DNA of 63,943 nucleotides, counting the filler, from Asterionella formosa (Eukaryota), in assembly GCA_002256025.1 (NCBI GenBank). It is 18 parts of 18 records of this genome, joined end to end, with 100 filler letters (N's around TTAATTAATTAA, not from the genome) between each part and the next. Parts side by side here need not be neighbours in the genome. Positions count along the whole stretch, not along the records: positions 47,467 to 48,748 come from NKIB01003237.1; positions 48,849 to 50,130 come from NKIB01003238.1; positions 50,231 to 51,512 come from NKIB01003239.1; 15 more parts are not named here. The stretch is one strand, 5' to 3'. The notes under the pieces were generated by a model that was not told the DNA's origin, searched no databases, and worked only from the letters and a program-made list of their open reading frames with translations. Below, piece by piece: positions 3,079-63,444 of the stretch. Each line of letters starts with the position of its first letter. The stretch's first letter is position 1. The translations under genes and the position numbers were made by a program.

Positions 3079-6000
3079 TGCGGGGCAACTGCTGGTACGG
3101 AAGTTCGTTTTCTTTCTTTCCCACTCGTATGACCGAAGAAGCAACGATTACGATGTATGCACAGGTGCAAAAAGTAGACTTCCAGGTATCATGTACCAGG
3201 TATACCAGATATAATTAGAACACTACCGTAGTACATGGTACCTGGTACCAGGTACCGTACCAGTTCCAGGTAGTCTAGTGCGATACCAACTATGTACCGG
3301 TATGCTACTGGTACCGCCAGGTGCCAGCACCGGGGTACTGGTGCTACTTCGTATGTTTTAAGGAAGATAAGGAGCGAGCTTGAAGAATTCTTTCTACCAG
3401 GTACCAGTACTGTATTCCAGTATGATTCACCTTTGCTCCTTGTCGTTATTGTATTTCCTCTACTGTCAGACGCATGGCATAGTATACAAAATACGACATA
3501 ATTTACCTGTCTCTGACTGTATTTGATTCAGAAGAACGCGTGGTTCTTAAAAGAACGCGACCTGGAAAGGCAAAAGGGGAGCAAAGAACGCAAAAATGTA
3601 CGGAAAAGAACGTCAAGCAGGCCTTGCACAATCCACAAGCTATGTACAGTTTATAAAAGGAATTTTCGACTTGTTTCCTGGACCTTCCTGTCATGCAAAC
3701 CAGTCACTGTACATGTGATCAACTTTTTTGAACATCATACTGGTAGGTAGATGCTGGAAGTGAATTGACTCAGACAGAAGATCAGCGTTGCCACAAGAGT
3801 ACTGATTGCTGAAGGTAATACACGACCAAGTGTGGAGACTGCCTGCAAGTATTCTTGTGTTCGAGGCTTGGGAGGTGCAAGTAGGTTGACCAAACGAGTG
3901 GCACCCCCAGCGCTGCAAGAAGGTTGACCTGCGAGGGCCTCCCAAGCCAAGTACACAAGATTACGAGTAGGCAGGCAGACTCCTCCCAAATAGGGTCTTA
4001 ACTAGGCAGTTCACAAACTAGCTATTGGATCGCTTTTTGCCACTACATTGCCCTTTCTGTTAACATTGAAAACCTATTTTAGATAGTTTGTATGTTGGAT
4101 GCAAACTAGCCAATTGCCCTTCATATAAAACATATGTTGTATATTTCATATGTACAGTTTTTGGATTACTCAATCCTGCAATCACCCATCATATAAAACA
4201 TATTTTGTATATTTCATATGCTCCGTTTTTGGACTGCCAAACTACCTTCAATATTTTCAATAACCCCTAGATTTTATTGCCAAAATCGACTGCCGTTTAT
4301 TTAAGGGAAATGGATTACTGATATATATAGCCCCTCAATTGACTGCTGTTTACTTAAGGAAAATCGACTGCCGAAATTGGAAGGGAGTCGGAGGAGCTAC
4401 ATGAAGGCATGAAATCATGGTTTTCTGTTAAGTGTTGATGACAATTCCACCATATACATCCCTGCTATCTTCCAGCATGCTCCAAGATAAAACAACTCTG
4501 TTCATTGATGTCTCAAACATTGACTCTTCATCAAATGGATCTGGCTGGTTGTTGGATAATTCGACTTCTCATATGATTCATATTATTGCATCATGCTTGC
4601 TTCATCACAGTGGTGCCAAAATTTCGGTTCCCCTTTCTGTTGATTTCCGATAGCCTTTCCAGCCAAATACTTCTCTACATTTGATGAGAAGTGATAAATA
4701 AATCAATGATTGTTCAAAAGCGGCCTCAATCAGTTGTTGAGTATCAAAACTCAAAACGTTATGGTGGGTCAAAGTTAGGCTTCCATCTCGTCATTGAACC
4801 GGTATTTTTGTCAGATATGATCAGCCGTTAAATTTTAACTATAATTTTGTAGTTTGTTTTCTACGTGTCCTACACTATCTTAAATCAGATCTTGGCAGCA
4901 AGCTTTAGTGCTCATGTGTTGGCTTTTTTCCGCTACTCTACAATAGCATTGTTTCATTGCTTTCTATTCACAATATTACTTTTGTTACTTCTGCATAATC
5001 TTCTACAATGACAACGAAAAGTTTTTAATCTCAATGAGCTATCGCAAACTCCGCAAAGCAGCTGGAACATGATGGAACCGGTGTTCTGCATTAACTCGTA
5101 TTCAGCAAGGAAGCGAGGACTGGTATGTGCTTGTTGATTGTTGTTGCCATATTTGAGTTCCCGCCATGGTTGAGTATACTAACTATGAAACGTATTTCTT
5201 CCTCTTCTGAACGTTGATGAAGGCTATTGTTATGTTACTCCTCCACTTCCTGACGATGCAACAAATCAGTATCCACTGGTCAAACCAGCTTGTCCAATGA
5301 GGTCAAATATGTTGCCAGTTGATTGTTGTTTTCACGAGGTATAATAAACACACACTACCATTATTCTTTTCCTGTTTCCCAATGCCAGCGAGCCACTTTT
5401 GTCGAAACTCGCATGAAGATTGCAAAGTCTTCAGGTCGCAAACAATGTGGGCAACATATCTCGCCAACACCAGCAACATATCACTCCATTGCTCCCTATC
5501 AACCTACTCAAACCTGTCCTCCTCGATTTTCCAAGCCACAAACGCCCACATCAGCCAGTAAATTTTCGACGCATCCTGTTCCTCCTCCTGCCGGATACTA
5601 CCAGAAGTCTGCGTCGCCAGCACCAAACCACCACTATCAAGCTGCTCCTCCTCCAACACCTCCGCAACCAAAAGTTCGAATCAATACAGAAACCAGCACT
5701 GCCTCTAAATCCATTCAGGCATCGGTTTCTGCTCCTCCAGGCTCAATCTGAACATTTCTGAAATTTTTGTCGTTGCAACGACAAAAAAGTGTGAGTTGAC
5801 AATTGTTAATGAAAATGCGTTGACAAATTTTCGCACCATTTTTCCGCTGACCCATTTTCTTTTTCACTTTTATTCTACTCCCTGCTGGTCATTTTCACGT
5901 CTTACCTTTCGATTTCCGTTTCATATTTTGGTTGCTTCTTAACATCGTGTCGAATTTTCGATGCTTGGTACAATCATTCTTGTGTGACTATTTTTCATGC

Positions 6001-6203: not shown

Positions 6204-6262
6204 ACTGTTCTCATCGAAAAGCAAGACGATAGCTAGGGTGGGGGGGGNNNNNNNNNCCCCCC

Positions 6263-6438
<176 letters not shown>

Positions 6439-9251: not shown

Positions 9252-10064
9252 TCTGCTTTCCGTATTCTCGAACTAGGTTAATTGATCAAATAGGGGATTA
9301 AATGTAATGTATGCAATCGTCGTTCTTCCTTGCCTGATGCCAAAGTCAAGCTATGTGTAAGGGGGTTTGACAACGAATGATGAATATCCGAGGAGTGTTG
9401 AAAGTAGTGTTGTCAGTTAATTAAAAAAAAACTACCGGAATAACTGTATTTATTTTAATAGTTCTTTACTGGCTTCAGGGTACATCATTCTTTTCTCGCC
9501 CGCATCACTCTCTTCAATTTCTTATTTTTAGTGCAAACTACCAGGTAGTCTACCAGTATCACATACCGGTATATCATATGTACAGTATAGGTGCGACGCC
9601 GACGACAATAAAAAGAGCGGAATGTTTCTTGAACCTTCTCTACCTCCGGGTTGTAACTTCAATTCATTCACCACACCACCCTGGCTGCACAGTAAGCAGT
9701 ACCAGGTACCAGTACTACCAAGTACGACTCATCAAAGATTCCGTTTTTTATAGGGTAGACTACCGGTACTGCTAACGGTAGACGTATTGTTTGCTCATGG
9801 TTTCATCAGTACATGAGCCCTTGAGCGAAGTTTCCACAGCACTGCTCAGGGAAATTTTACCGAGGACAAGTCGAACGCCTGCTGTATACTGGTGTCGCAC
9901 CCCTGGTTTTGCGAATTAGCAAGCTCATAATGGAAACATACTACCGGTTGCTGGAGAAGCTCAGGTAAAGGCATTGTGACTTGAACTGCCCAGTACAAGA
10001 AGACCGGTACCGGTATGTTCTTGTCAGGAGGGCGTTTGGTGTTGCTCACGTGCAATTAATCCGT

Positions 10065-11252: not shown

Positions 11253-12011
11253 AGTCGATGTGTTCTCTACAATGTCGGTGACGGTACCAGTACGGGTGAT
11301 GACTTTCAAGTGCGTGCCAAAAATGTGGTGTCAAATGATCAATAAAAGAAAAGATAGTATCGGTAAAAAACGCATTGCTTTGCTTCGTGAAACCTCACCA
11401 TCATCTGCAGATATGTATCATCACACATTGCGAGGAACTGTGCATATGAATGGAAAAGTATGAAAATATATTTTATATTGTATGTAGATTAAATTATGCA
11501 AATGAAGACTTTATTTTTACATGCATCAAAATGCCAATGACACTACCTGGTCCTGTCCTGGCACTGACTGCAAGCTACAGTTACTGACTCAAGTCTGATA
11601 CCGGTATTCCAGGAGGGGAGAGTTGCGGCAAAAAAAGGTACCTACAGTACTACATACTACGGGGAATTTTTATCATTTACGGCAAGCACCTTGTCGGGTA
11701 CCGTTGGCATACTCAAATGTATCTCCAGGTAATAAATGGTACCAGGTACCAGGGTACCCTCGTAGTCTCCTCGCACCATCATGATACAGTGATACCGGTA
11801 GCATGCGGTACTACCGATATAATGAATAATCATAAAAAGTACGGAACGGACTACAACCACATTCTTCCTCGGTCGTGCATCATTCATCGCATGCTGAGCG
11901 ACGAATTGACCGAAAATTTCTTACGGTTGGTTTGTCCACTTTTGATCATTCAGGTTTTGTTTGTTCTCGCTCGTTTGACGACGCAGATGTTGACTATCCT
12001 TCGTCGTTGTA

Positions 12012-13670: not shown

Positions 13671-13993
13671 GTGGACTAAATTTTTTACTAAATTGTTTTG
13701 CTTTGTAATTATTTACTGGTACATACCTGGTTGTAGCCTTGAAACGTGCTGAATACATTCTTGCTGTTATAGGTATATGTATACCAAATACAGGGAAAAA
13801 ACCAGTACCAGTACCTGGTAGGTTCCCGTACTGCTGCTCCCAATTCCACCGCCGATGATGTCAGACCGTTTCCCTAATTCTTATCCGGTGCTTTTGATTT
13901 TTGTTTGTGCCGATGATAGCCGTGCTGCTGTTCGTTGTTGATCGGCATTCTTGACCAGCTAGATGTTGATCGCGTAGATACGTATCAATTATC

Positions 13994-15797: not shown

Positions 15798-16381
15798 AAT
15801 TGAAGAGGGGTCTTGCTGGGATCCAAAACAGCAGGAGGACGCAAGGAAGGCGTTTGTAATGGCAAAAACAAAAGCGACACCCCCTACATATATTCTATGG
15901 ATACAGTACCTGGTACCAGGTAGTCTACTCGGAATCTGATGGAATGATGCATGTAAAGAAAACGACGTAGAAACGCAGACAACAAAAACAGAAAGCCCGA
16001 TATCAAACTGCAACTTGAATATCTTCCTTCTGGTGGCTCAAAACCCAGATTTAGGGTTCGCATTTGTTCCAAGTATATACGTAAATGAATATAATATAAA
16101 CTCTTTTTGATGCCCTCCAGTTGGCTGCAAGTCTTCGTTGGTGGGTTTCTACATACGTTAATCCTTGTTCTCCGGTTCCTTGGGAGTTCATGGCGAACAG
16201 ATGACATACAGGTATCCAAACAGCAGGAGGCACCAATGTACCGGTGGTAATAGAACTCTCTCCGGCAAATCCATCATAGAATAATTGTTCGCCTCATCTA
16301 CACTACATAATTTCTCCTCGACAGGAATCTGAAGTCGATCTTCAACAACGAAAACAAAGAGGAACAATCTACGGAAGAAGG

Positions 16382-19601: not shown

Positions 19602-20085
19602 TACTTGTTGCTTGGTCTGTTGCTATATGCTGAGTGCACGAAATGTCTGAACCTAGTGATGCTTTGGCACTCAACTCGAGATGCATGAACTCAAATGAAT
19701 GCTTGAAAGAAATGTACCGCTAGTAACTGTTGGTGCACTGCTTTTGTAGTCGACACCAACTTGAATCTCGTTCAGCCATGCATCATGGCACGTTTTCAGA
19801 GAAGTGGTATTGGCTGTTGTAGAGACTACCGGGAACGTAGTCGTAAAAAATTAAACTCTCAGTTAAACCCGTAGTGGAAGCTAGCGCTAGTAGTTAACTA
19901 CCTGGTACCAGTAGTACCGTGCACAAGCTAGCGACAATGATCATGAGGTACCTAGTACCGTTGCTGCTTGCTTCATCGTGTATTTTCCTTCTGCATAATA
20001 ATATGCATATAGCTCATGGTGGGAATCCTGCCGGTGTACCAGGTACCAGGTACCGGAAATACGACTCTATTCCATTTTATGTGTA

Positions 20086-25156: not shown

Positions 25157-27930
25157 AGTATAAGTGGTGTCCATATGATTATTACTTAATTGCCGGTTAT
25201 AGAACCGCTTCCATGGAATATCATAAGATGATGTCAGAATTAAATATTTGGTTTTGAATCTAATATACCGCCATCATTACCTGTACCACCATCACCTCCG
25301 GTATATGATTTATAGCTCACAATTTCTAATAAATACTTTAGGAATTAACCCTCCGCTTCTAAAAATTAAAAAAGCCAACATCAAGCCTCATTGCAAGAGC
25401 TGTCAGCAGTACTAGTATTCACTATAACAAAGTGGTTATGAGCCTAACACTATAAGAGAATCAATTAAGCCTCCATCAGATTACAAGATGAACAACCACG
25501 TCTAACCCAGTAAATCTTCCAACCGTTCCCTCTCAGAGAGGAGGTATTCATACCACATATGGCATCTTCATTGGAGGTGCTCAACTAGATGACACTTACC
25601 ACCTTCTACCAAACCGAAGCGCTTATCGATTCTCGACACAAGGTCATCATGAAAAAACGATTGCTTCCATTAAACAGAAGCTCAGAGATGCCCGCGATTC
25701 TGTAACAACTGTAAAGGTCAATGGACAACTTGAAGCAGCTGCTGGACTATCTACTGAGATACTAGGAAAAGAAAAATTCATCAGTATGTTGAAAGAAAAG
25801 GTGAAAGAGCATGGCCAAAAAACATTCTATGCAATCAAAGACAATGATGGAACTCGTCGCCCAGATACAACCAATTTTTACTTCGAGGCATTTATCAGTA
25901 TGAGTTAGAAGATGTTGAATTGTCACTCATGCTCGTGTTTTCCCTAATTACCTCGACCTTCAGTGAGAAAATGGAAATCAGATTTGACCATCAAGTCAAT
26001 TTTGAGTATCTCTCCGTTGCTTCTCTATTCATGATGATGGCCTTAGAAACCTGCGATGCATCCGTCGCCCATGATGTCGAAGGGGCACGCAACCAACTTG
26101 ACAGCCTCAGTCTTTACTCCTATCCAGGTGAAAAGGCGGCGGATTTGACCACAGAAGCACAACATCTTATCAAAATCATGCAAGGTGACTACGCATTGCC
26201 TGTAAATACCGGTTCCAAACTGATTCAGAAGGTCACAAAAACTTTGTGCGAGTAATTCAATCGTAAAATGTTTACCCTCCTTGATGAAGTCAAAACACTT
26301 GAGCATGACTACAAACTGTCCGATCCTAAGACACTCACCAAGGACCCAAAATACGCCAAGTCTGGCCCACTGGGAATCCTTGCAACTTTGCAAGCAGCTC
26401 ATGGAGCTCTTCTATCTGAACTTGATTGGCCTGCTCTGGCAACCAATGTCCCAGACGTATCCAATCTCTTGATGAACACCAGTGCAAACACCCGCACCTG
26501 CTATCGCTGTGGAAGTGGAAGTGGTGATAATCTCGCTTGCGACTGTCCCCAACCTGCACCTCTTGCTGGCGGATCCAACACTCATAACCACTCTGCTGCT
26601 CTGGCTGATTGGAAATACATCAAACCAGCTAACCTTACTACAACCAAGTGTCGGGCCACCAACAAGATAAGATATTGTCAGCTTAGTCACTTGGACTCGG
26701 CTCACCTTGATAACTATCGTGCCTGTCAGCGAGCTGCTGCAACCATTCAACCTGCCAGCTCCGTTTTGGACACCACCAATGGTCCCAAATCGCACGAAAC
26801 TGCTCCACCAGACACTTCACAGAGTAATTTGTCAGCAGTTGTCAAACCTAACCCCACTCCTGCCGGTCCTCCTGATATCACTACCCCTGCTCCTTCCACT
26901 ACCACTGAACCACTCAACGATATGACCTTCACTGGGGCATGGTGTGCTCCTGTTATCCATCCACTTGATATCGACGTGTCTGTTTGCGGATAAACTCCTA
27001 CTCCAACTACCTTCAGAGAGAGCAAGACAAACTTGCACACTTCTGTCATTGGGAGGGGAAAAACCATTAAAAATAACAATGTGTGTGAGACACATGCAAA
27101 TCTGGATTGCAAAGACCAAGGAGGCACCAACAAGCAACCACTCAACGACTCAAGTGATGGATGTTCTTACAAATATCAATATCTTAGCACATGACCCATA
27201 CTCTTTGTTCACAATGTCAAGCACAAACAACGTCAGCAGTAATCTTCGATACAGGAACATCATTGGGAACTACACACAACATGATACAAGACTTTGATGG
27301 GACACTTACCATTCCAGACTGTGATCTTCGACTTGAAGGTATGGCCAACGGCTTGAAAATAGAGGGAGTTGGACCAGTTGCATGGACACTTAGCAACAAA
27401 GATGGCACAGCCAAATGCTACTATGTCCCTCAATCCAAATGAGACTGATTACTATGAAGACTCATTCAGGTTTCAATTTCATGGCTGTCCTTGTCTGATT
27501 GTTGAGTATGACCCTAGAAATCACCCCCCCCCCCTTGGACAAGCCAGGATTGGATTGGGAATGTTACCGCAGGTGATCTTTGCCCTAACCAACAAGGGAA
27601 ATCAAAACATTAGTGCTGGTCAAAAAAGTCTTTTAAACTGGCATTTTCGCTTCGAACACTTAAACTGCGTGCATTCCCATTTACAGCCAGTCGATTCGCC
27701 TCATCATACAAATGCAATGCATTGGACCTAAAAACGAAATCTGTAAAAACTTAAAAGGACACCGTTCTCCAACACATTCTTCTAAAACCATCGCTAATCC
27801 TGAAGGAATTGGCGCACTGAAGGCTGAACATCTTGGACCTGGTGTAAGATTTTCAGTTGATAACTTCGAATCTTGCCTTTTCGGACACACCTTTGACTCC
27901 TATGGAAAACCATCAGCAGACACCCACAAA
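25157..27930 (+). mobile_element. 5' half of a degenerate Ty1/copia (CoDi-like): truncated 5' LTR to 25429, PBS, gag with zinc knuckle, protease, start of integrase
   Basis: LTR end CTATAACA followed by TGGTTATGAGCC; knuckle CYRCGS..LACDC; protease VIFDTGTS; LLNWHFRF; integrase start FSVDNFES..SADTHK. Confidence 0.85.
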
Positions 27931-31195: not shown

Positions 31196-31604
31196 TGTTA
31201 TAGATGAATAGTACTGTCGACAGCTCTTGCAATGAGGCAGGATGAAGTAGACTCTTGAGGATGTTGTTCTAAAAGGCACTTGTTATAGATGAATAGTACT
31301 GTTGACAGCTCTTGCAATAAGGCACCAGGATGAAGTAGACTCTTGAGGTTGTTCTAACTTGTAGAAGCGGAAGGTTTGTAATGACAACGACTAATTCCTT
31401 AAGTATTTATAGGAAATAGTGAGCTATATACTATATACCGGAAGTGATGGCGGTAGAGGTAATGATTGCAGTATATTTGATTCAAAACCAAATATCCAAT
31501 TCTGACATCATCTTATCATGATATTCCGTCTTATGATTTTCCATGGTAACGGTTCTATAACCGACAACGAAATAATAATCATATGTACACCACTCACACT
31601 TTCG
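31196..31604 (-). repeat. 3' LTR of the host copia (inverted relative to 25157-25429), with its terminal ~85 bp duplicated in tandem
   Basis: Reverse complement aligns with 25157-25429. TGTTATAGATGAATAGTACTG occurs at ~31196 and again at ~31281. Confidence 0.85.
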
Positions 31605-41835: not shown

Positions 41836-42942
41836 NNNNNNNNNNNNNNNNNNNNNNNNNNNNNNNNNNNNNNNNNNNNTTAATTAATTAANNNNNNNNN
41901 NNNNNNNNNNNNNNNNNNNNNNNNNNNNNNNNNNNTTAATCTGCAGTTTGTCAATGCATTCAGCCATTTTATTTTAGCTAATGAATACCAGTATAACTAT
42001 TCATATTGTATTGAAAAGTGCTGACCTATATGGACCATCAAACAGCCATTTAAACAACTTACAATGTAAATCTAATATATCATGCTTTTCTATTAGTATG
42101 TAGATATGATGATACATTTTTTAAATATAAATTTCTTTCTGACCTCTTTCTAGTATAGAATAGGTAATGACTAACTGATATAGTACACAATCATTTGAGA
42201 ATACAGTGATTCATGACTGATGTGTGCTAATGGTGAATCATTCCTACTCGTGCTGCATGATCATGCACCAAAAAATAAATTTGGACACATTTTTGAACTT
42301 GCTTTTGTTAGTACATATTAGCTATACCACTATAGCTATTTATGCATCTGTCACATAAAATGCATATCCATGTGAATATATGTATGAAAAGGCAACAAGC
42401 AAAACGACCAAAACATGATCATAACCTAATACTCCGAGTACAAAGCACCAGTGTGCATGTACTGTCGCCTGTGTATGCGTCAGCATGGGCGGTGCATCTC
42501 ATCGTACTGTACATACCGGTATCCGGTTCTTGCCCCTGAATCATTTTCCGATGAATTAATATGCGGTACCTGGTACCCGTAAACAATACTGAGCAGTACC
42601 TGACCTCGTACCTGGTGCACCGTACCATTATAATTCATGATCATTTATAATGCACGTACGTACAGTATAAACGGTGTTTATGTTTAGTAACACTACCTAG
42701 TACCTAGTACTCCTACCAGGTACATACGGGTACCGGTAAGCAAAAAGAGGCAATGACAGCAAGCGAAGTAATAATTATTATATTATAAAAACATTGTCAT
42801 CTAAGAATAGAAATATATGAACTAAATATTTCTAACAGCATACCGGTACTGTAGCCACACTCCTCGGATGGATAATACCTTATTGATGATGGTACTAAAA
42901 AAACGCATTTTTCACACCTCTCATTAAATAATCATTTTCATC

Positions 42943-48240: not shown

Positions 48241-49646
48241 TAAGTAGTAAAATGAGGACAGGGGAACTTTTTGAATCTATCACCTCCTCAACAACAACTT
48301 GCTTTAAAGTAAGAAAGGAATAATTCAATTTCATCGCTTCAAATTATACGTACGCTGCTGTCACTGCCTCCACCAACCCATCCACATCGTGATTAGCACG
48401 CTCCACTGAATCCAAGACCACTCTGACGTGCCCGAAAAAAATGAGATTGTTGATATTCATGTCTGTTGAGTTTGCCGGTCGCCCTGTTAAATTGATTCCC
48501 ATCCATCCAAAGTAGCTGCGTCTAGAAAGGGAGCATAATCACTTCCGAAATCAGTGCTTGCATGGTCATTTTGGATGTATACTGTCTTAGAGCCGTTGAC
48601 ATCAACCAGCTGGTACTTCTCCCAAATCACTGGAATTGCATTGTTGATGATTGTGTCTGCATAGCTCTGCTTGCTTTGTAACCTGTAAATTCGTCATTAT
48701 CATTGTCCCTGCTGGTCGTTTATCGGCTTCCTAAGCGCTGGAGTCTGCNNNNNNNNNNNNNNNNNNNNNNNNNNNNNNNNNNNNNNNNNNNNTTAATTAA
48801 TTAANNNNNNNNNNNNNNNNNNNNNNNNNNNNNNNNNNNNNNNNNNNNCGTTGCTGGATGATGGGGAAGCGTGTGCTTCTTCGGCGTTGCTTGTCCTCAT
48901 GGTGCCTGATGGTATGTTACAACGGATGGAAAGCAAGTTGAACCAGCTATGATGTGTGTTGTGGGATGTCGGTCTGCAGTTGGGCTGATGTGAAAGTCAA
49001 GGACATCATACATATATAATTTTAGACATTCAGATGTCCGGGACCACCAGTGTACATGTACTACCGGTAGCTTTACTATTACTGCCAGAATTTAGTGTGA
49101 CATACCGATACATACTTCTGTACTAAAGTATGTGCTTGCTACTCATCAACTACGGTACCTGGTACCGGGTACCTGGTACTGGTACCAGGTAGCACCATGA
49201 AAAGCATAGCTGCGGTACATCATCAACTGTATCCATTATGTACATACCAGAATAGATTGAGTGGATATATATAGCACAGGAAAGACTCAAATACCGGTAG
49301 GTCTATAGGCTATATCACCAAAGCATGTACCAGTATATGTACAAATCAACTTTTTTATAATGCCAACCCCATCATCAGGACTCCAGAATATGTTTAGGCA
49401 ACTTGTATAGCTTCTACAGGTAAATGATACAAGTGCATGGATATCCACATTGGGAGAATGTCAAAATAAACCAATACTAGCTGCAATATATGGTACTCCT
49501 CCTTGAATTCCGTTTTGAGAAACAAATGCAATCAAGTTACTAATTTGCCAAATATCAATCAAATGAAAAGATACTTTATCAAACAAAGGTGTAATCTATT
49601 AGGGATTTTATTATTATGGAATGTGAGGGACATGAAAAAGTTCTGG

Positions 49647-50130
49647 CTATTTCTTGGTGCTGTTGACAAAGTGCCGCAGGTTTGCCCGTATCGTATGTAC
49701 ACCTTCTGCTTCATCGTCATTTGTCCAGCCAAACTCAAGTCGATGAAGCTCAATGTGAAAATCATCCACTGCCTTGATGAGCAGTTCCCAGTCATCAAGG
49801 GGAATCTGTAGACCCTCAAAGCTATTGTGTGATATTTGAGTCAAAATCTCCTTCAAATTCAACATGTGAGCTTCAATAGCTCGGGGTGGTGGGTCTTCCT
49901 TATGAAGTGTGATAGGCCGATATATTTGTAATTCATCGTTTCCATTTGTTGATTGCACAACGCTCCTTGACGCAACATTCCGTCGATTTACACCAGAATT
50001 GGTGCCATTGAGGCTGTAACGACGGCCAGACATCAAGTCACTGACCACAACCGTTTCGCCTCGCCACACGCGAATAATCTTCGGCATCACAATTTGCCAG
50101 ATTGTTGTGAATGTAATCCCCATAAACAAA
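49647..50130 (-). CDS. C-terminal part of a hypothetical membrane protein (copy A)
   Basis: Open from the contig edge. The frame is intact in the second copy, with 2 aa differences and several synonymous changes. Confidence 0.7.
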
Positions 50131-51028
50131 NNNNNNNNNNNNNNNNNNNNNNNNNNNNNNNNNNNNNNNNNNNNTTAATTAATTAANNNNNNNNNNNNNN
50201 NNNNNNNNNNNNNNNNNNNNNNNNNNNNNNCGTTGCTGGATGATGGGGAAGCGTGTGCTTCTTCGGCGTTGCTTGTCCTCATGGTGCCTGATGGTATGTT
50301 ACAACGGATGGAAAGCAAGTTGAACCAGCTATGATGTGTGTTGTGGGATGTCGGTCTACAGTTGGGCTGATGTGAAAGTCTAGGACATCATACATATATA
50401 ATTTTAGACATTCAGATGTCCGGGACCACCAGTGTACATGTACTACCGGTAGCTTTACTATTACTGCCAGAATTCTGGAGGTTTATTATATACATAGTTC
50501 TCCTTGGTAGTGTGACATACCGGTACATACTTCTGTACTACAGTATGTGCTTGCTACTCATCCACTACCTGGTACTGGTAGCACCATGAATAGCATAGCT
50601 GCGGTACATCATCAACTCTATCAATTATGTACATACAAGAATAGATTGAGTGGATATATGTACCGGTAGAACAGAAGAGACTCAAATACCGGTAGGTCTA
50701 TATATCACCAAAGCATGCATATGTACATATCAATTTTTTTAGAATGCCAACCCCATCATGAGGACTCCAGAATACCCTGTAGGCAACTTGTATAGCTTCT
50801 ACAGGTAAATGATACAAGTGCATGGATATCCACATTGTGGGAGAATGTCAAAATAAACCAATACTAGCTGCAATATACTCCTCCTTGAATTCCGTTTTGA
50901 GAAACAAATGCAATCAAGTTACTAATTTGCCAAATATCAATCAAATGAAAAGAAACTGTATCAAACAAAGGTGTAATCTATTAGGGATTTTATTATTATG
51001 GAATGTGAGGAACATGAGCAAGTTCTGG

Positions 51029-51512
51029 CTATTTCTTGGTGCTGTTGACAAAGTGCCGCAGGTTTGCCCTTATCGTATGTACACCTTCTGCTTCATCGTC
51101 ATTTGTCCAGCCAAACTCAAGTCGATGAAGCTCAATGTGAAAATCATCCACTGCCTTGATGAGCAATTCCCAGTCATCAAGGGGAATCTGTAAACCTTCA
51201 AAGCTATTGTGTGATATTTGAGTCAAAATCTCCTTCAAATTCAACATGTGAGCTTCAATAGCTCGGGGTGGTGGGTCTTCCTTTTGAAGTGTGATAGGCC
51301 GATATATTTGTAATTCATCGTTTCCATTTGTTGATTGCACAACGCTCCTTGACGCAACATTCCGTCGATTTACACCAGAATTGGCGCCATTGAGGCTGTA
51401 ACGACGGCCAGACATCAAGTCACTGACCACAACCGTTTCGCCTCGCCACACGCGAATAATCTTCGGCATCACAATTTGCCAGATTGTTGTGAATGTAATC
51501 CCCATAAACAAA
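51029..51512 (-). CDS. C-terminal part of the same hypothetical protein (copy B, probable allele)
   Basis: Near-identical to 49647-50130; both contigs are 1282 bp and have the same end sequences. Confidence 0.7.
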
Positions 51513-51612
51513 NNNNNNNNNNNNNNNNNNNNNNNNNNNNNNNNNNNNNNNNNNNNTTAATTAATTAANNNNNNNNNNNNNNNNNNNNNNNNNNNNNNNN
51601 NNNNNNNNNNNN

Positions 51613-54469: not shown

Positions 54470-54583
54470 CACATGAAGAAGACAGCCGCAACCATCCAGC
54501 TTCACATCGGGAGACGCATGGTTGCATCTTCGGCAGGTATCCTGTCTTGCAGGGCTCGTCGAGGTTGATGGACAGCTGATCAT
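54470..54583 (-). CDS. First exon of a Cys/His-rich (RING-like) hypothetical protein
   Basis: MISCP..CRRCNH..GCGCLLHV followed by a GTGAGT donor at a codon boundary. Confidence 0.5.
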
Positions 54584-55184
54584 ACCGGTATCTAGACAAC
54601 AGCGATCCCCCGATCGAAAGATCCTTTTTTGGGACGAGCAAAATAATGAGACCTTACTAAATAAATAATCTACACCGTACAAGCTCATACTGGAACAACA
54701 TACCGGTAGGCAGTGTCACTGGTGCCGGCATATTGCAATGTAGAGATGGTACTGGTACACCTGGGAGTACCAAGCAGCACCTGGTAATACTCTTTATTTC
54801 ATGCTTACGTATGTACTCCGCAGTATTTAAGAAACAGGCATGCAATTGTTACCGGTATGATTCGTTTCGAATTTATTATTGTGCTCCTGCTAGCCGACCG
54901 TTAAAATTTGTGCATACTGGGAACAAACAACAATTTTTATGCAGAGATGGTGAGCAATCCTGCACATCGATACAGATATATATAGAGTTGGGGTTATGTC
55001 AAATATATCGGAATTCAATAATGAGAGAACTCGACTAACACCCATTCTATACTTTGATGTCAGTTCAGGAAATGAGTTATACATAAGGATTAATTAATAA
55101 GCTCATATATTCAACAAATACTACTACTTCTAGTTAGATACTTCACTTTGAATTCAAAAAGAGTCGAATTAGAAGACAACAAAC

Positions 55185-62660: not shown

Positions 62661-63444
62661 AGGGTTTTCACATGTTTGTACATAGACCACAACAACATAT
62701 CCATCTTCAGTCTTCTCACGTATAAAATGATATCTGACATCAATATGCTTTGTCCTTGATCCAACTTGTTGGTTTTTGCTTAGGAAAATCGCTCCAGTGT
62801 TATCCTCAGCAATTATTGCTGGCAGTTCCACATAGTAGACCTCATCCAGCAATAGATTTGTAACAAATGTAGTATCCTTGACACCGTCGCTTAGGCTGAC
62901 ATACTCAGCTTCTGTGCTTGATGTTGTTACAATGTTCTGTCCTTTGGATGACCAAGTCACCAAGGAGCGTGCTCCAATAGTTCCGAGATATGCACTTGTA
63001 CTTTTGCGAGTATCAGGGTTAATTGCAAATGCACTGTCAACAACATCCATTGGGCGCATTTCTTTAGGGGTTCGCATCTTCATACGCCGATGTTTCTTGT
63101 CTGCATGTAAGAATCCCAACAGACGTTCAACCGCCTTCCAATGAGCCTCTCCTGGATTCTCCAGATGCTGAGACAATTCTCGACATGCATTGGCACAAAT
63201 TGGAGATATCTTCTTTACAAAGTATAAGATTTTTCCAACCATGGATCTGTATTCACTATGTAGAACAGTGTGGGCATCATTCTTGGACAAACTTGTACCT
63301 GGCAATCCGGGAGTTGGTGCAATTGCGGGATAACGTCCAAAGAGATTCTTATAGTCTTCAAACATTCCTTCAACGAAATCCTCCATAGTAGATTCAAGAA
63401 ATCTTCCATCAGCAATTCCCGCTCCAGCTATCGTCTTGCCATTC
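62661..63444 (-). mobile_element. Ty1/copia RT-RNase H fragment
   Basis: YRSMVGKILY, RKSTS, WSSKGQNIVTTSSTEAEY, EDNTGAIF and RTKHIDVRYHFIRE. Confidence 0.93.

Follow-up and report, generated by a model that had tools for sequence, protein, structure and literature searches.

What process makes two versions of one locus differ by short fillers, each bounded by a TA dinucleotide? The question is raised by two 1282-nt contigs, A and B, in a 63,943-nt stretch of DNA deposited for Asterionella formosa (GCA_002256025.1; referred to here as the window), in which words of the form TA-C..G-TA are present in one contig and lacking in the other. An initial annotation of this DNA had read the words as stacked excision footprints of Tc1/mariner transposons. 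We found that they are TA-bounded units which are polymorphic as indels between alleles, palindromic, chained through shared TAs and in excess across the genome, and we could confirm that the pattern is broader than first described, being genome-wide and recurring in a second diatom-like genome. The best single mechanism that we can offer, unproven and held with somewhat less than even confidence, is that the C..G words are scars of TA-targeting Tc1/mariner-type transposons that were inserted and later excised.

Contigs A and B are alleles of one locus

The window consists of 18 size-sorted contigs (of 20,868 and 20,867 nt, then sixteen of 1280-1283 nt) with 17 identical 100-nt artificial linkers (N..TTAATTAATTAA..N) between them, and as it is a concatenation, adjacency across any linker is not real. 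A and B are the sole near-identical pair in it. Population data were taken from Logan contigs of four runs from four studies (X1, X5, X6 and X7), aligned on A; such contigs drop rare variants. The parts of the pair, in window positions, are:

48749-48848, linker N..TTAATTAATTAA..N that precedes contig A; the same linker recurs at 50131-50230 and 51513-51612
48849-50130, plus strand, contig A (haplotype A), 1282 nt; A-type contigs occur in X1 and X5
50231-51512, plus strand, contig B (haplotype B), also 1282 nt, beginning and ending on the same bases as A; B-type contigs occur in X1, X5 and X7
48849-48975, identical 5' flank of 127 nt, equal to 50231-50357 in B
50004-50130, identical 3' flank of 127 nt, equal to 51386-51512 in B

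Global alignment of A with B gave 27 mismatches in 1238 aligned columns and eight indel sites. The outermost mismatches lie at 48976 and 50003 (positions of A), and all eight indel sites fall between 49092 and 49493 of A, a span of about 400 nt; the mismatches include 6 in the 480 bases of an open reading frame (ORF), 2 in the first 244 nt and 14 in the central ~400 nt. Since both identical ends measure exactly 127 nt, A and B would represent both arms of a bubble in a k=127 de Bruijn graph, and their equal length may most simply be a by-product of size-sorting, in which only equal-length arms come to adjoin.

In X1, A-type contigs with a depth of 94 and B-type contigs with a depth of 53 compare with 160-165 on the common flanks; in X5, labelled 'algae metagenome', the values are 500 and 482 with 764-846 on the flanks, a ratio of about 1:1, and a B-type contig of 721 nt from X7 has the 33-nt insertion described below. 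As the allele depths add up to the flank depth and their ratio varies by sample, A and B are alleles, and neither fixed paralogues nor assembly errors. What had first been taken for two copies of one locus are thus separate contigs carrying alleles, not a genomic duplication. The stretch was found in 20 listed public runs from 15 studies, whose labels are freshwater, lake, riverine or algae metagenomes; its source would be a freshwater alga, probably of a diatom-like kind.

Most indels between the alleles are TA-bounded units

The strings quoted in the initial annotation are all present in the window at their positions, and its statement that most indels between A and B take the form TA-filler-TA holds for six of the eight sites; the other two, a 33-nt insertion and a TG duplication, had gone unmentioned. 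The words and indels of the locus are:

49151-49191 (A), six-unit chain with fillers cgg, cctgg, ccggg, cctgg, ctgg and ccagg between TAs, TAcggTAcctggTAccgggTAcctggTActggTAccaggTA
50566-50580 (B), two-unit chain at the same place with fillers cctgg and ctgg, TAcctggTActggTA
50661-50668 (B only), TACCGGTA; A has TA at 49270-49271 and a neighbouring A/G change, and CCGG is inserted behind 49271 in X1 and X7
49307-49311 (A), 5 extra nt forming TA-ggc-TA, lacking in X1, X5 and X7 contigs
49328-49335 (A), TACCAGTA, filler ccag; B has CA
49389-49396 (A), TA-tgtt-TA, where B (50773-50781) has the different filler TA-ccctg-TA
49489-49495 (A), TATGGTA; B has TA
50836-50837 (B), TG duplication, ordinary slippage and not of the TA form
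50475-50507 (B), 33-nt insertion, the largest indel, its left side without TA; also in the X7 B-type contig
49062-49069 (A) and 50444 (B), TACCGGTA shared by both alleles
49292 (A) and 50687 (B), second word common to both alleles

The difference between six units and two in the tract requires at least two events. When insertions of the same lengths were placed at random in the same region by simulation, the TA..TA form arose with p ~0.04; among seven simple indels, four were scored by script as having it (P ~1e-4), and five with the CCGGTA insertion that adjoins a substitution, so that the predicted enrichment of indels at TA is borne out. Fillers had also been expected not to be copies of adjacent sequence. 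This stands for the isolated insertions CCGGTA, CCAGTA and TGGTA, which have nothing in common with their flanks except TA; it fails for the TG slippage and perhaps for the ggc unit, which by its letters is possibly an imperfect copy of the adjacent GTCTA. A duplicated TA faces a single TA in the other allele at four sites (B 50661; A 49307 and 49489; X6 49061), and the fifth empty allele reads CA.

Single words are little conserved between the alleles: two of the five in the A/B stretch are common to both alleles, and at B 50518 TACCGGTA corresponds to TACCGATA in A. On a B-like background, X6 carries TACCTGG added behind 49061, by which the shared TACCGGTA becomes TACCTGGTACCGGTA. As this unit is absent from both diverged alleles and is unlike its neighbour, it is most simply a fresh gain at the TA of an existing word. 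The sole X5 contig over 49489 keeps the TGG unit together with B-type letters at 49572/49576 and a TG insertion at 49450; the TGGTA unit, present on the A type and on this contig, therefore segregates separately, via recombination or recurrent change. Over the A tract, depth rose to about 100 times that of the surroundings in all four runs, with loose ends of low agreement (0.44-0.59), so that hundreds of other loci must carry similar chains. Because these map to it, the tract at 49150-49192 cannot be genotyped.

The first 4 nt of the 33-nt insertion complete, with the upstream flank, a perfect 12-nt palindrome, CCAGAATTCTGG (50467-50478), such as fold-back templated synthesis would leave when a break is repaired. 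Fold-back (snap-back) templating suits this insertion and was rejected for the words, as it cannot give C/G fillers at AT-rich sites.

In B only, TACCGGTACATA (50518-50529) and its reverse complement TATGTACCGGTA (50657-50668) make up an inverted pair of 12 nt with 127 nt between them. Contig A departs from it at either end through point or indel differences, and the pair may be a chance one given the local density of words. The 147-nt B stretch that runs from TA-CCGGTACATA to TATGTACCGG-TA (50518-50668) was considered as a miniature inverted-repeat transposable element and rejected, its interior being the same in A.

The words are in excess across the genome

Words were counted on both strands of the window with B excluded (60,961 nt). 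After a poly-C artefact, the top 8- and 9-mers under a third-order Markov model were TACCGGTA (17x), ATACCGGTA (31x) and TACCAGGTA (22x), together with words overlapping them. Under a second-order model, TACCGGTA was observed 36 times (0.9 expected, 40x), TACC[A/T]GGTA 18 times (0.5 expected, 36x) and TACCAGTA/TACTGGTA, with a CCAG or CTGG filler, 25 times (2.2 expected, 11x). TA stands on both sides of 18 of 111 CCGG and 18 of 102 CCWGG cores (W, A or T), whereas the control cores GGCC, CATG, GATC, CGCG, GCGC and GGWCC showed no dominant flank; beyond the TA, the flanks of different words are unrelated. The C..G fillers thus hold up as a sharply defined class with a genome-wide excess.

On the gene-rich 20.9-kb contig hardly an intergenic region lacks a cluster of words, and the Copia-rich one has almost none. 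Further clusters are:

3194-3410
9539-9768
10008-10015
11599-11800
13714-13820
15902-15922
19899-20052
42514-42853
54583-54857

One-sided or unequal fillers were not in excess in this count (TACCGTA/TACGGTA 1.0x, TACCATA/TATGGTA 0.8x, TACCTA/TAGGTA 1.1x), and the full 3+3 product TACCATGGTA did not occur. Among the fillers compared, only the perfect palindromes TACC(W)GGTA and TACCAGTA/TACTGGTA were enriched. The proposal that the fillers arose by variable trimming of CCA/TGG or CCG/CGG termini found no support here. The idea that CCAG/CTGG derives from CCGG by CpG-transition decay was likewise dropped: the sole relevant polymorphism (TACCGATA in A versus TACCGGTA in B) lies off the CpG. A search of open-access papers and bioRxiv by word string and topic returned no account of these words.

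A second diatom-like genome carries the same words

Scanning JGI metagenome contigs for three 7-nt-spaced GGTACC units returned at least 124 stretches, from which we assembled a set of 54 loci (234 kb) with GC content <0.48 and at least two words. Their ORFs (DUF6824, DUF285, ferritin, PAP_fibrillin and Copia) suggest an intron-poor, plastid-bearing, diatom-like eukaryote; the term 'diatom-like' is probably apt, judging by this Pfam content and by ShK and Copia domains in the window. In the 16 loci of at least 3 kb, 150 nt were masked on each side of the ascertained arrays, which left 168,211 nt. TACCWGGTA was still 66-fold over-represented, and other TA-bounded palindromes appeared, namely TA-G(A/T)C-TA (6x) and TA-CTCGAG-TA (42x), besides TA chains with one-letter C or G fillers. 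In the window such additional words are weakly enriched or missing (TAGWCTA 1.8x, TACTCGAGTA 0 occurrences), so the word spectrum is species-specific.

Some loci with a GC content of 0.43-0.46 (L020, L023, L065, L069 and others) hold long TAG/CTA-rich intergenic stretches, with 161 occurrences of TAGACTA/TAGTCTA, 13 of TACTCGAGTA and 8 of TAGCTAGCTA. Locus L050 matches the window over 754 nt at 99.3% identity (L050:4779-5529 with window 62661-63414) and contains two tandem Copia copies, 97% alike over 4.7 kb; it either comes from the window's own species or shares with it a very recent Copia family. An all-versus-all megablast of 123 loci gave no allelic pair and two self-overlaps only.

The words are chained by shared TAs and lie on the promoter side of genes

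The anatomy of the word is nearly invariant outside its centre. In TACC-N-GGTA the central base is A in 215, T in 215, C in 7 and G in 7 cases in the loci, and A in 11, T in 7, G in 1 and C in 1 in the window; judged against one-mismatch neighbours, fixation reaches at least 91% at every one of the eight outer positions. Successive canonical words share exactly one TA in 172 of 426 pairs. A gap of -1 or 0 was never seen, and no gap of 1-25 nt was seen more than seven times. Stacking at newly created TAs, as the initial annotation proposed, agrees both with this exclusive chaining through a shared TA and with the X6 allele, which gained a different unit beside an existing word. Single words make up 65 of the 79 window chains. 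Adjacent units are identical in 1 of 21 cases in the window (2.1 by shuffling); in the array-ascertained loci, identical neighbours number 110 of 317 with 41.9 expected, and CCWGG pairs have the same centre in 100 and a different one in 56 cases. The excess in the loci implies that some unit duplication acts too.

For location relative to genes, ORF-based gene calls were made on the 20.9-kb contig and 13 long loci, and regions with an ascertained array were counted apart. No word fell within 89,776 nt of ORFs. Density was 0.19/kb in convergent intergenic regions (1 word in 12 regions, 5.1 kb), 0.81/kb in tandem ones (18 words in 29 regions) and 1.26/kb in divergent ones (9 words in 8 regions), the convergent deficit being marginal (1 word observed, ~4.7 expected). 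In tandem regions, the fifth adjoining the stop of the upstream gene holds 4 of 93 words. The distance from a word to the next ATG is broad, with a median of 676 nt and quartiles of 452-1013. For the flank profile, 7 window and 60 locus words were usable, too few for a target consensus.

Excision of TA-targeting transposons as a proposed origin of the words

A short palindromic filler inside a duplicated TA is what Tc1/mariner excision is classically known to leave. We infer a transposon origin for the words, together with the identity of the transposon's ends and the chemistry of joining, along the following lines. Insertion would duplicate the TA, and excision would leave behind the outermost 2-3 nt from either inverted end, CC.. 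from the left and ..GG from the right. Joining of these ends would give the palindrome TA-CC-GG-TA, while one A/A or T/T mismatch, resolved either way, would give TA-CC-W-GG-TA. As each scar would bring two TAs, later events could stack into chains. A CCAGG-ended element keeping two letters per end would leave exactly TACCGGTA, and TACTCGAGTA of the second genome would be TA with three letters from each end of an element starting with CTC.

Published systems resemble these steps, as far as the cited passages go. The canonical footprints of Sleeping Beauty are 'cag' or 'ctg' between TAs, with A or T at the centre (PMC5224488); the centre of our words, A or T 215 times each and C or G 7 times each in the loci, matches that pattern, and we count it in favour of scars. 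Tc1/mariner footprints are given as 2-4 bp, and one family favours palindromic AT repeats as targets (PMC7913693). Oligonucleotides for the inverted terminal repeats (ITRs) of Mos1 read TA-CCAGGTGTAC and TA-TCAGGTGTAC, with the 5' break 2-3 nt inside the element (PMC2642840), and the terminal inverted repeats (TIRs) of plant Mariner elements start CTCCCTC (PMC4423477). The filler letters of the words match these published Mos1 and plant Mariner ends; no resident element with such ends was found in ~297 kb. In rice, DNA-transposon polymorphisms were reported 74 times upstream, 24 times downstream and once in an exon (PMC4423477, in the passage cited). We count the avoidance of ORFs and the preference for upstream-type intergenic DNA for scars too, since the rice polymorphisms behave alike.

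Several observations weigh against excision scars. DDE or other DNA-transposase domains were found neither in the 127 window ORFs of 90 amino acids (aa) or more nor in the 126 ORFs of 150 aa or more from 17 loci; only Copia domains appeared. When 61 kb of window and 234 kb of loci were scanned for inverted pairs flanked by TA, no source TIR element that starts with a word filler emerged; the scans returned arrays of the words, arms belonging to a Copia-bearing structure, repeats of telomere-like sequence and, in L074 and L054, a few long pairs. Mos1-like ITR starts numbered 0 in 296,627 nt, and Stowaway-like starts 3, all unpaired. The expected pairing of a full element in one allele with a footprint in the other was not seen at the A/B footprint sites in contigs of the four runs, from which rare variants drop out. 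One-sided and unequal footprints are unenriched (0.8-1.1x) and TACCATGGTA is absent. A 5-nt CCWGG filler needs a 5-nt stagger or a one-base mismatched overlap, whereas the cited passages give 2-4 bp (PMC7913693). Natural rice footprints, in the passage cited, are mostly messy and perfect in 8 of 94 cases (PMC4423477), and the words here are sharply defined. In the second genome more neighbours are identical than expected (110 of 317 versus 41.9), which shows that unit duplication is also acting. As the sample is <0.3 Mb, the absence of transposons weakens the scar reading and does not refute it. Taken as a whole, the Tc1/mariner interpretation is partly supported.

Among the inverted pairs that the scan of the loci returned, the longest, up to 87 nt and three of them nested, lie at L074:2168-2358, and two of up to 31 nt lie at L054:1919-2125. 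Their termini are not words (they start AAT and GCT/AAA); either may be a small TIR element, and both loci are among those assigned to neither genome. At L009:190-1450, inverted telomere-like TTTAGGG/CCCTAAA repeats lie on a 1.6-kb contig that also bears a GGTACC array.

Alternative explanations

Slippage or unequal exchange of GGTACC(W) palindromic units, with the TA..TA look reflecting repeat phase only, is in our estimate rather unlikely as a full account. The length difference between A 49151-49191 and B 50566-50580 does sit within an array, the loci show their excess of identical neighbours, the TG indel is plain slippage and the ggc unit may be an imperfect copy of GTCTA. The isolated CCGGTA, CCAGTA and TGGTA insertions, however, have no local template, and the new CCTGG unit of X6 is unlike its CCGG neighbour. 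Window chains are mixed in unit length and sequence, with 1 of 21 adjacent units identical, and most of them (65 of 79) are single words with unrelated flanks. Variation is moreover limited to the centre base, with the eight outer positions at least 91% fixed, which random decay of an old array would not give. Pure slippage therefore fails for the isolated sites, the X6 unit and the heterogeneity of the chains; it probably contributes to array length.

TACC(W)GGTA could instead be the site of a dimeric DNA-binding protein, selected upstream of genes, an explanation to which we give a low probability. Its appeal lies in the sharp definition of the word with a spacing of 0 or 1, in its sharing by two genomes and above all in its location: absent from 89,776 nt of ORFs, denser from convergent through tandem to divergent regions, and scarce (4 of 93) in the fifth beside the upstream gene's stop. 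The convergent deficit, though, was measured on 12 regions totalling 5.1 kb, and the words stand at no set distance from the ATG. Turnover proceeds by whole TA-bounded units and not by point changes, with two of five single words kept between alleles. Overlap by exactly TA would be odd for independent binding sites, and the word spectra differ between the two genomes.

CCGG and CCWGG are classic cytosine-methylase sites. A transposon-independent process at TA, in which a nuclease or domesticated transposase makes staggered breaks that are filled with self-complementary CC(W)GG, or in which a methyltransferase or repair bias shapes the words, seems about as improbable as selection for a binding site. 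The enriched fillers are all symmetric and self-pairing, and their cores coincide with such sites; no element turned up in 297 kb, and flux is high, with at least eight indel sites against 14 mismatches in the central ~400 nt. No enzyme is known for either variant, which counts against such a process, and the source of the C/G letters would be left unexplained; missing elements in <0.3 Mb are, besides, weak evidence of absence. For the methylase variant, HIP1 provides a precedent as an over-represented 8-nt palindrome tied to methyltransferases (PMC4390886). The cited part of that paper, however, examines HIP1 across whole cyanobacterial genomes and mentions no restriction to non-coding DNA, whereas the words here are absent from ORFs.

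It is tempting to speculate that diatom-like algae undergo an ongoing, TA-specific writing and erasing of self-complementary fillers (CCGG and CCWGG; in another species also GWC and CTCGAG) on the promoter side of genes, with a nuclease or domesticated transposase, and not resident elements, as the agent, and that this, and not point mutation, would be the main source of their regulatory indels and top words; we regard this broader proposal as doubtful.

Finally, that contigs A and B are assembly errors or two diverged paralogous loci, as their equal 1282-nt length and identical ends in a window of joined small contigs might suggest, is very improbable, since A- and B-type contigs occur in independent studies with depths that sum to the flanks in ratios differing by sample, the 127-nt identical flanks are as expected of bubble arms, the equal length would be a selection effect of size-sorting, and the same words also occur in the 20-kb contigs and in other assemblies.

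Gene context and other features of the window

The coding neighbour of the variable stretch is:

49650-50129 (A; 51032-51511 in B), minus strand, end of an ORF, 160 aa, with its stop at 49647-49649

It corresponds to the C-terminus of a 763-aa 7tm_3 protein (similar to family-3 G-protein-coupled receptors; PF00003) at 99% identity (E 5e-101), and the alleles differ by 6 mismatches in its 480 nt. The variable A/B stretch lies downstream of this gene. The ATG of a next minus-strand gene may lie at 48900-48898, judging from just 17 open codons to the contig end. A JGI metagenome scan with the neighbouring ORF gave 114 pattern matches and no relatives.

Pfam domains in the window belong to a Y-family polymerase, a DEAD-box helicase, a ShK-domain protein and RVT_2/rve fragments, and the window genome appears from its sequence to be that of an intron-poor eukaryote with Copia-type retroelements. 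A language-model search for proteins resembling the DEAD-box helicase placed it among eukaryotes, at no rank as fine as phylum. In the first 20.9-kb contig, a run of N and two poly-C runs after it, of 96 and 78 nt (6250-6438), gave the top 'enriched' k-mer and has the look of a scaffolding or sequencing artefact. Inverted arms about 6 kb apart (25157-25347 and 31392-31600), made of 72-128-nt pieces that are 86-88% complementary, enclose degenerate Copia-like gag/pol ORFs with zinc knuckle and RNase H-like parts. About 560 nt at the end of the second 20.9-kb contig (41268-41824) are 80% identical to part of a 1281-nt contig (58519-59065), as a paralogue or repeat family.

Discussion

Among known systems, Tc1/mariner footprints (TA-c(a/t)g-TA of Sleeping Beauty; TA-CCAGGTGTAC of Mos1) are alike in having a duplicated TA around a 2-5-nt palindromic filler with A or T at the centre, in filler letters equal to the first letters of known mariner ends and, in the passages cited above, in a preference for non-coding DNA near genes. 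They differ in that here neither an element nor a transposase was found in <0.3 Mb, the filler may reach 5 nt as against 2-4 bp and one-sided footprints are unenriched; the putative scars here are also the top genome words by frequency and uniformity, and are stacked in chains. Mini- and microsatellite arrays share with the words chains with a 6-7-nt period, unit numbers that differ by allele and, in the second genome, some excess of identical neighbours; unlike them, the words are mostly single, vary in unit length and centre, and are gained without template at plain TA.

The mobile G+C clusters of yeast mitochondria are short GC-rich palindromes of 30-50 nt in AT-rich non-coding DNA with duplicated AT-rich target letters; they resemble the words in being dispersed GC palindromes, whereas the fillers here measure 4-5 nt and are nuclear. 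HIP1 (GCGATCGC) of cyanobacteria is likewise one 8-nt palindrome, over-represented more than 10-fold genome-wide with a methyltransferase-site core, according to the cited part of PMC4390886; the words here are, in contrast, eukaryotic, confined to non-coding promoter-side DNA, chained, and gained or lost as TA-bounded indel units.

If the words are transposon scars, the word content and the indel polymorphism of DNA on the promoter side of genes can be dominated by excision footprints in a major group of primary producers, and words made of TA, a short sequence, its reverse complement and TA (TA-X-rcX-TA) would be a simple read-out of past DNA-transposon activity, even where few or none of the elements themselves are left. 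If the words have another origin, they call for an explanation, either as the product of a sequence-specific mutational process or as a highly abundant diatom promoter palindrome. Either way, the words are easy to test genome-wide.

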